IMG/VR virus record: IMGVR_UViG_2651869691_000012
Span: 1 to 17,954 of that record
Source: a virus
Taxonomy: Duplodnaviria; Heunggongvirae; Uroviricota; Caudoviricetes
Reading direction: 5' to 3' (one strand)
Length of the DNA stretch: 17,954 nucleotides
Below the pieces are notes generated by a model. It did not search any database and was not told the DNA's origin. It saw nothing but the letters and a program-made list of their open reading frames with translations. Of this stretch, positions 8,495 to 9,393 are shown one piece after another. Position 1 is the first letter of the stretch. Each line of letters opens with the position of its first letter. A program made the translations under genes and the position numbers.

Positions 8495-8523
8495 ATAGTA
8501 CGATTTGTACTTTATTGAGTCAA
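8495..8523 (-). promoter_or_regulatory. pL-equivalent early-left promoter (-35 TTGACT, 17-bp spacer, -10 TACTAT) with an embedded operator-like palindrome
   Basis: Minus strand reads TTGACT-caataaagtacaaatcg-TACTAT. The palindrome AGTACAAATCGTACT overlaps the spacer and -10. Sits upstream of nutL and N. Confidence 0.7.
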
Positions 8524-8584
8524 TACAAAATGTTCTAAATATAATTAGTTTTTTATAACGCTTTGTATTTAGTGGGTTTATATT

Positions 8585-8616
8585 TTGGAAAAAGAAAACC
8601 CGACACTAAGGTCGGG
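8585..8616 (-). terminator. Rho-independent terminator downstream of the repressor gene
   Basis: CCCGAC-ACTAAG-GTCGGG hairpin (8599-8616), followed on the minus strand by TTTTCTTTTTCC. Confidence 0.6.
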
Positions 8617-8648
8617 TTATTGTTGTGTGCTTTAGAGTGGTGAGGCTG

Positions 8649-9302
8649 TTAACTAAATGTCTCTTCAGGCCACTGGCTGGCAATAACTTTCCCTACTACG
8701 GAACAGCTATCATTGCATGGAATCATTGGATATTGCGGGTTTAGTGGCTGTAGGAACACCTGACCGCTATCCCTGATCAGTTTCTTGAAGGTAAACTCGT
8801 CACCACCAAGTCTGGCTATGCAGAAATCACCTGGCTCAACAGCCTGCTCAGGGTCAACGAGAATTAACATCCCGTCAGGAAAGCTTGGCTTGGATCCTGT
8901 TGGCGCGGTCATGGAATTACCTTCAACTTCAAGCCAGAACGCACAATCACTGGCTTTTTTGGTTGTGCTGACCCATCTCTCCGCATCACCTTTGGTAAAG
9001 GTTCTAAGCTCAGGCGAGAACATCCCGGCCTGAACATGAGAAAAAACAGGGTACTCATATTGTTTTTTAACGGGGGCAGATGAGTATTCGCCAACAGGTG
9101 AAAATGTACCGTCGTGGTTGAATGAGACGTTATCAATACCAAGGTATTTAAACACCACACCAATCTCGTCAAGAGATGGATGACGAGATCCGCGCAACCA
9201 GTGACCAATTCCACCCTGCGTCATACCAAGCTCTTCAGCTAACTTCTCTTGAGTTATGCCGAGCTCTTTCATTCTGGATCTAGCCAGTTCATACCATTTC
9301 AT
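8649..9302 (-). CDS. cI: CI-type prophage repressor, chimeric: non-lambda HTH N-terminal domain fused to a lambda-CI-type LexA-like (S24) C-terminal domain
   Basis: C-terminal half ([21 protein letters not shown]...[88 protein letters not shown]) matches lambda CI as I remember it, with the Ala-Gly cleavage site, catalytic Ser and Lys. N-terminal about 80 aa are an unrelated XRE-type HTH. Start chosen at the ATG with AAGGG 7 nt upstream; ATGs at 9308 and 9344 are alternatives. Confidence 0.85.
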
Positions 9303-9317
9303 TTTCATACCCTTATT

Positions 9318-9332
9318 ATTACGCTCTGTACT
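9318..9332. promoter_or_regulatory. Operator-like element on the pRM side (AGTACAGAGCGTAAT on the minus strand)
   Basis: Third copy of the AGTACA-N-A-N-CGTA-N-T element found in pL and pR. Lies immediately upstream of the repressor start. Confidence 0.45.
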
Positions 9333-9364
9333 AAAACCATCCATGCACAAGATGTATTTTTTGT

Positions 9365-9393
9365 TTGCATTCTAAAAGTACATATCGTATTAT
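9365..9393 (+). promoter_or_regulatory. pR-equivalent promoter (-35 TTGCAT, 17-bp spacer, -10 TATTAT) with embedded operator-like element AGTACATATCGTATT (9377-9391)
   Basis: Near-consensus sigma-70 hexamers with 17-bp spacing, about 27 nt upstream of the cro ATG. The operator-like element overlaps the spacer and -10. Confidence 0.7.

Follow-up and report, generated by a model that had tools for sequence, protein, structure and literature searches.

In phage lambda, three operators lie on each side of the repressor gene cI. The sites OL1 and OR1, in the left (OL) and right (OR) operator regions, cover the -10 hexamers of the early promoters pL and pR, while OR2 adjoins the -35 hexamer of the cI promoter pRM and OR3 lies over the pRM -10. 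The lambda operators are 17-mers (TATCACCGCCAGTGGTA) spaced 24 and 20 bp in OL and 24 and 23 bp in OR. Phages 434 and P22 each pair an HTH_3 repressor with an HTH_3 Cro. The recognition helices of the two proteins are closely similar, and both read one set of short dyad operators, of the form ACAA-N6-TTGT in 434. Here we analyze a stretch of 17,954 bp (the window; positions 1 to 17,954 of the IMG/VR virus record IMGVR_UViG_2651869691_000012, Caudoviricetes). An initial annotation, made from its letters alone, had pointed to three copies of a 15-bp operator-like element embedded in pL, in pR and on the pRM side of the cI-cro region.

The closest described systems are phages of the same immunity type: VT2-Sakai (AP000363), the Shiga toxin (Stx) 1-converting phage (AP005153) and Stx2 phage II (AP005154). 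In the GenBank entry AP005153, 'putative operators' are marked, three in each of OR and OL, at positions equivalent to those of the sites described here. The source of this operator annotation is said to be Sato et al. 2003. The OR1-3 and OL1-3 sites of VT2-Sakai have been printed as 17-mers (Table S1 of Sedhom and Solomon 2023, PMC10742460), and they correspond to the six sites of the window with one base added on each side. In the electrophoretic mobility shift assays of that study, the non-cognate lambda CI bound the VT2-Sakai sites weakly, with apparent dissociation constants of 3.7-6.4 uM (PMC10742460).

The resemblance of the window to this group is close. Over the cI-cro block, its DNA shows 93% identity (92.9% for the VT2-Sakai / Stx1-converting-phage type) with the Stx1-converting phage, Stx2 phage II, Nil2, 2851 and many O157 Stx2 phages, and 99% identity with the coliphages Dewey, Louie, 720R6 and 683R2; Cro is 98.6% identical to that of the Stx-phage type. 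The sites agree with those of the VT2-Sakai type at 13 to 15 of 15 bases, the differences falling in central or degenerate positions while all contact positions match. OL1 equals the VT2-Sakai OL1 save for one central base, OL3 shares 14 of 15 bases with its counterpart, and OR3 is identical in the Stx1 phage and in VT2-Sakai.

We consider it very likely that the sites serve as operators in a lambdoid immunity region, one of the VT2-Sakai / Stx1-converting-phage type. Dyad sites stand on both sides of the repressor gene and overlap the promoters, cI and cro diverge around OR, selection acts on the half-sites, which co-vary with the recognition helix, and the CI N-terminal domain, Cro and the operators are those of VT2-Sakai. 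The initial reading of the elements as OL1, OR1 and OR3, with a weak OR2, holds up by position, by conservation, by comparison with Salmonella phage P6 and by the prior annotation. It is correct but already known, and amounts to an annotation rather than a discovery. The sites would define the immunity specificity of a common group of Escherichia coli prophages (209 IMG/VR loci and 110 phage records), the Stx2 phage of the O157:H7 outbreak strain Sakai among them. In Stx phages of this group, occupancy of such sites by the repressor would keep toxin production in check.

Within this type, the window differs from the Stx phages in several respects. Its OL lies 0.14 kb beyond the end of cI and OL1 is 880 bp from OR1, with no rex genes, whereas the distance is about 1.6 to 2.3 kb in the Stx phages, which carry extra genes. 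The backbone is lambda/434-like and sits at att-lambda, the Stx phages being short-tailed, and the spacer sequences and the length of a T-tract in OR also differ.

With lambda, the window shares the layout of three operators on each side of cI and their relation to the promoters, a nearly identical CI C-terminal domain, lambda-like N, nutL, cII, O and P, and a probably leaderless cI. It does not belong to imm-lambda, however: its operators are unrelated to the lambda 17-mer, and its CI has an N-terminal domain that is no more than a distant relative of the lambda one and is without the long N-terminal arm. The Cro protein is all-helical and of the HTH_3 family, not a lambda-type Cro, rexAB is absent, and the spacings depart from those of lambda. 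The likeness to 434 and P22 lies in the pairing of an HTH_3 repressor and an HTH_3 Cro with closely similar recognition helices on the same short dyads. Relatedness to these proteins is weak (E = 0.006 to P22 C2 and 0.1 to the 434 repressor), the operator sequences differ and the C-terminal domain of the window's repressor is that of lambda. Two further types were considered and rejected: that of 933W and phi24B (phi24B has 933W immunity, with two OL sites), and that of Stx2 phage I, whose CI is H-19B-like and whose operators are different (e.g., TTTCAGTTCAACCATAA).

Six candidate operators flanking cI

All three copies described initially were recovered at their coordinates when read from the sequence (OL1, OR3 and OR1 in Table 1), and a consensus promoter scan agrees with the claim that the element overlaps the spacer and -10 of both early promoters. 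A degenerate copy suspected at about 9345-9358 is also present, as OR2. The listed sites stand but their total does not, as OL2 and OL3 at pL had been missed. In all there are six sites, with one group of three on each side of cI (8497-8569 and 9318-9391). Centre-to-centre distances are 25 bp (OL1-OL2) and 33 bp (OL2-OL3) on the left, and 26 bp (OR3-OR2) and 33 bp (OR2-OR1) on the right. The six sites share a 15-bp quasi-palindromic consensus, A-TAC-N5-GTA-T, in which A4, C5, G11, T12 and T15 are invariant.

Table 1. Coordinates of the candidate operators, promoters and genes discussed in the text (numbering of the window).
Feature	Position	Strand	Sequence or elements	Remarks
OL1	8497-8511		AGTACGATTTGTACT (+ strand); AGTACAAATCGTACT (minus strand, the reading given initially)	Sole perfect AGTAC/GTACT dyad; top matrix score, 18.9
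OL2	8522-8536		AATACAAAATGTTCT	2-nt overlap with pL -35
OL3	8555-8569		ATAACGCTTTGTATT	
OR3	9318-9332		ATTACGCTCTGTACT (+ strand); AGTACAGAGCGTAAT (minus strand)	Covers spacer and first 4 nt of the candidate pRM -10
OR2	9344-9358		TGCACAAGATGTATT	Poorest consensus match, 4 mismatches to the dyad; adjoins the candidate pRM -35
OR1	9377-9391		AGTACATATCGTATT (+ strand)	Matrix score 17.3
pL	8495-8523	-	TTGACT (8523->8518), 17-nt spacer, TACTAT (8500->8495)	9/12 matches in the scan
pR	9365-9393	+	TTGCAT (9365-9370), 17-nt spacer, TATTAT (9388-9393)	
pRM (inferred)	9316-9343	-	TGGATG (9343->9338), 16-nt spacer, TAATAA (9321->9316)	Weak -35
cI	8649-9308	-		219 aa; HTH_3 and Peptidase_S24 (Pfam)
cro	9420-9635	+		71 aa; HTH_3 (Pfam)
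Bidirectional terminator hairpin	8597-8618			Between OL3 and the cI end; 8-bp stem, T-runs on both strands
nutL boxB hairpin	8425-8439			Downstream of pL
N	7944-8267			Downstream of pL; lambda N36 motif
Host pectinesterase-family gene (ybhC-like)	1-1284			
Lambda-type integrase	1419-2489			
HNH endonuclease open reading frame	15979-16626			nin region

With at most one mismatch, AGTAC-N5-GTACT has three matches in the 17,954 bp against 0.20 expected, a number that none of 200 dinucleotide-preserving shuffles reached. In an unbiased repeat search, the top inverted repeat of the region (20 nt, 90%) paired OL1 with OR1, and OL1 and OR3 came out as a direct repeat. When a symmetric position weight matrix was trained solely on the three initially described sites and scored at 17,940 positions, OL2 ranked fourth and OL3 fifth, both less than 60 bp from OL1. 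Leave-one-out matrices ranked the six sites 1, 2, 4, 6, 6 and 27, OR2 being the weakest.

That three 15-mers should merely recur by chance in AT-rich intergenic DNA deserves next to no credence. The search at two mismatches does speak for chance: five matches were found in the window against 4.07 expected, hence no overall enrichment, with one of the two additional matches being OL2. The excess at one mismatch, the shuffles, the matrix ranks and the conservation in diverged phages refute such an origin, and the copies all fall in two regulatory gaps.

A lambda-like OR2 placed 24 bp from OR1, with its centre near 9360 (TGTATTTTTTGTTTG), was tried and rejected: it departs from the dyad at five bases, and nowhere else in OR are variation and indels as frequent as in this segment. 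The best matrix match beyond the six sites, AAAACATGCCGTGCT at 9543-9557, lies inside cro with a score of 9.5, and the Stx1 phage has the same sequence. In HK022, a CI site downstream of OR has been reported. As an extra operator of the window, 9543-9557 was rejected, its score lying in the background tail and its position in coding sequence; it is probably a chance match.

Promoters and the start of cI

With pR read as TTGCAT-17-TATTAT, its layout matches that of pL; the register returned by the scan itself is TTTGCA-18-TATTAT (9364-9393). OL1 in pL and OR1 in pR each cover the spacer and the first four bases of the -10, and cro starts 27 nt downstream of the pR -10. The -10 hexamers are built from an operator half-site: GTAcT plus AT in pL, GTAtT plus AT in pR and GTAaT plus AA in the candidate pRM. 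Here OR3 ends in TAAT, which with the next AA makes up TAATAA. The ATG at 9308 follows this hexamer by 7 nt, so that a cI mRNA from pRM would probably be leaderless. The TAATAA-N7-ATG layout is kept in the Stx1-converting phage and in Salmonella phage P6, in which the pRM -35 reads TTGTCA and adjoins OR2. Relative to the inferred cI start, the centres of OR2 and OR3 stand at about -43 and -17, close to the geometry of lambda.

One could ask whether the sites resemble one another simply because three sigma-70 promoters share a similar spacer and -10, with no dedicated regulator involved. The three initially described copies do all overlap a -10 hexamer, and GTAnT plus two bases forms that hexamer in each. 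Yet the promoter-distal AGTAC belongs to no hexamer and is the best conserved part, the motif also occurs at OL2, OL3 and OR2, none of which overlaps a -10, and the sites are dyad-symmetric. Furthermore, relatives with another recognition helix swap TAC for CAC while the layout is kept. Such a promoter-only origin is highly improbable, and we retain the operator reading.

The start of cI requires a correction to the public records. In AP005153 and phage Dewey, the gene begins at an upstream in-frame ATG equivalent to position 9344 of the window, 36 nt too far upstream, which places OR3 and the edge of OR2 within the annotated coding sequence (CDS). The segment concerned is 9309-9344 on the minus strand (2161-2196 in locus L001 and 2370-2405 in L002). 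This start was rejected: within the 12 extra codons, the window and the Stx1 phage differ by two non-synonymous changes (F->S and G->D), the N-terminal extension is missing in P6, and OR3 lies within the added codons. The gene probably starts at the ATG at 9308, as a leaderless message, or at 9302, where an AAGGG Shine-Dalgarno motif stands at a suitable distance.

A leftward promoter with a TAGAAT hexamer (+ strand, 9369-9374) was also tried and rejected. No usable -35 accompanies it, conservation of the hexamer does not extend to the Stx variant, and all three sites would fall at or downstream of its start.

Conservation in close and diverged relatives

Conservation was followed in 80 IMG/VR loci with a Cro 99-100% identical, which comprise 28 OR and 44 OL haplotypes. 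Variable columns number 6 of 60 at the outer five half-site positions, 11 of 30 at the central positions and 63 of 133 in the spacers. In OL1, most variation falls on the central position 9, and position 6 changes once; in OR2 it is concentrated at the central positions 8 and 9, and positions 1 and 3 each differ in a single locus. Part of the spacing is invariant as well: OL1 and OL2 are 25 bp apart in all 69 parsable loci, and OR3 and OR2 are 26 bp apart in every locus. The OR2-OR1 distance is variable because the T-tract between OR2 and the pR -35 (9359-9376 in the window, with its counterpart in loci L004-L083) changes in length among natural isolates; it measures 32 bp in 16 loci, 33 in 55, 34 in 10 and 35 in one.

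Salmonella phage P6 extends the comparison. Its Cro is 70% identical, with the same recognition helix, its CI N-terminal domain is likewise homologous, and its OR carries ATTACGAGATGTATT (OR3 equivalent), CACACATATTGTATT (OR2 equivalent) and AGTACGAAATGTATT, spaced 26 and 34 bp. Its OL holds two copies of AATACAAAATGTACT at a distance of 25 bp and a weaker third site. These six sites are the top six matrix matches in the 3.4-kb locus, and the spacers between them are unrelated to those of the window. P6 thus resembles the window in its motif, in the 25- and 26-bp spacings and in the three-plus-three layout. In the P6 record (L085, 819-1482), the cI homologue is split in two CDSs, with stop codons after the recognition helix, which reflects either a frameshifted repressor or a sequencing error.

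More distant are mEp213, S107 and g341c, in which Cro and the CI N-terminal domain are homologous at 43-53% identity and the three-plus-three layout is found; just two 'putative repressor-binding sites' are annotated in the g341c record. In mEp213 and S107, whose Cro is about 52% identical, the recognition helix reads NQSRLANY or GQSRIANY, and CAC..GTG half-sites occupy the equivalent positions at lambda-like spacings of 24 and 23 bp. Since helix, half-sites and spacing all differ, these two phages are expected to be heteroimmune with respect to the window. The same helix goes with the same motif in P6 and another helix with other half-sites in mEp213 and S107, so that the DNA motif changes with the protein.

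Several observations weigh against this assignment or its details. The contrast between half-sites and spacers (Fisher p = 2.5e-7) is plain but derives from related haplotypes, and the p-value overstates their independence. Unlike the lambda OR2, the OR2 of the window does not overlap the pR -35, and the polymorphism of 32-35 bp between OR2 and OR1 does not readily fit strict pairwise cooperativity of OR1 and OR2 as in lambda. The candidate pRM was missed by the consensus scan and was placed by eye, with a poor -35. Lastly, a search of the accessible literature found no test of the cognate CI or Cro on these sites.

Some of these points would also fit a design in which only some sites are functional, OR2 (9344-9358) and OL3 being look-alikes and each side carrying two sites. 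The OL of 933W provides a lambdoid precedent for two sites, and the four mismatches of OR2, its leave-one-out rank of 27, its position off the pR -35 and the drift of its distance to OR1 all lean this way. We regard this as quite unlikely, however. In OR2 and OL3, variation is found in the centres and flanks, with the half-sites conserved, and P6 has a site 26 bp from OR3 despite unrelated surrounding sequence. In addition, OR2 adjoins the pRM -35 both in the window and in P6, which is the position of activation in lambda.

Repressor, Cro and a model of the switch

The repressor of the window is composed of two parts. Its N-terminal domain (residues 1-83) is of the HTH_3 type and differs in specificity from that of lambda, while residues 84-219 (8649-9059) represent the lambda CI linker and C-terminal domain with two substitutions. 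The match to the lambda CI structure (PDB 3bdn) has E = 2e-96, but near-identity begins only at residue 84 and the N-terminal domain matches lambda only at an E of about 1e-3. CI is a natural chimera, in which the linker and C-terminus of lambda CI are joined to a DNA-binding domain with a different specificity. It is conceivable that a double lysogen would contain mixed oligomers of this protein and lambda CI.

The CI N-terminal domain and Cro share 35% identity, and their recognition helices (TQGGIGHW in CI and TQGAIGHW in Cro) are identical at seven of eight residues. Such a common helix is the pattern expected if, as in 434 and P22, repressor and Cro recognize a shared set of operators. 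In the alignment with lambda CI, the acidic residues E34 and D38 of lambda are retained as E21 and E25. In lambda, these two residues form part of the positive-control patch. The closest solved structure to Cro is PDB 28tn, a 'lambda repressor-like protein' of 82 aa (E = 2e-16); roughly half of its residues are identical to Cro and its helix reads LTAGAICHY. A literature search found no paper on this structure.

From these features, we propose the following scheme. The CI N-terminal helix-turn-helix and Cro would recognize the six 15-bp sites. As the -10 hexamers are built from operator half-sites, a CI dimer bound at OL1 or OR1 would block RNA polymerase at pL or pR, and occupation of OL2 would also cover the pL -35. 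CI at OR2 would probably activate the leaderless cI transcript, as lambda CI does, and a high level of CI, or Cro, at OR3 would shut off cI at pRM, a negative autoregulation. The C-terminal domain is essentially that of lambda CI, and RecA-stimulated self-cleavage, pairwise cooperativity and looping between OL and OR, here over 880 bp, are therefore to be expected; HK022 CI is known to loop at such a distance.

The spacing is the one mildly unusual aspect. OR1 stands a helical turn further from OR2 than in lambda, at a polymorphic distance, although the oligomerization domain is that of lambda. One possibility is a cooperative pair at OR2-OR3 rather than at OR1-OR2, with a switch wired unlike that of lambda; we judge it rather doubtful. 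If true, repression of pR would depend on OR1 alone or on OL-OR looping, a single cooperative pair would both activate and shut off pRM, and the length of the T-tract would tune the stability of the lysogen. Such a wiring would be relevant for Stx induction in phages of the VT2-Sakai type.

The operators described above belong to a lambda-like prophage. The window starts in host ybhC and continues with a lambda-type int, and this junction of a ybhC-like gene with a lambda-type integrase places the prophage at att-lambda. About 57% of the window is 97-98% identical to lambda and 434, and further genes include cII, O, P and NinB. In Rfam, the sole match of the window is the cIII thermoregulator (6714-6772), with no RNA family in the immunity region.

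Two open reading frames (ORFs) of the window have no match in Pfam or PADLOC. One encodes 167 aa (7448-7951, + strand) and lies antisense to the pL operon, between an ea10-like gene and N. Its C-terminus is rich in Cys (C-x2-C ... C-x2-C), and the protein has a match in PHROG 1244 (unknown function). The other, of 590 aa, is located in the nin region (13676-15448, minus strand), opposite to the pR operon. It corresponds from end to end to PHROG 9230 (unknown function) and could be a moron or a defence gene.

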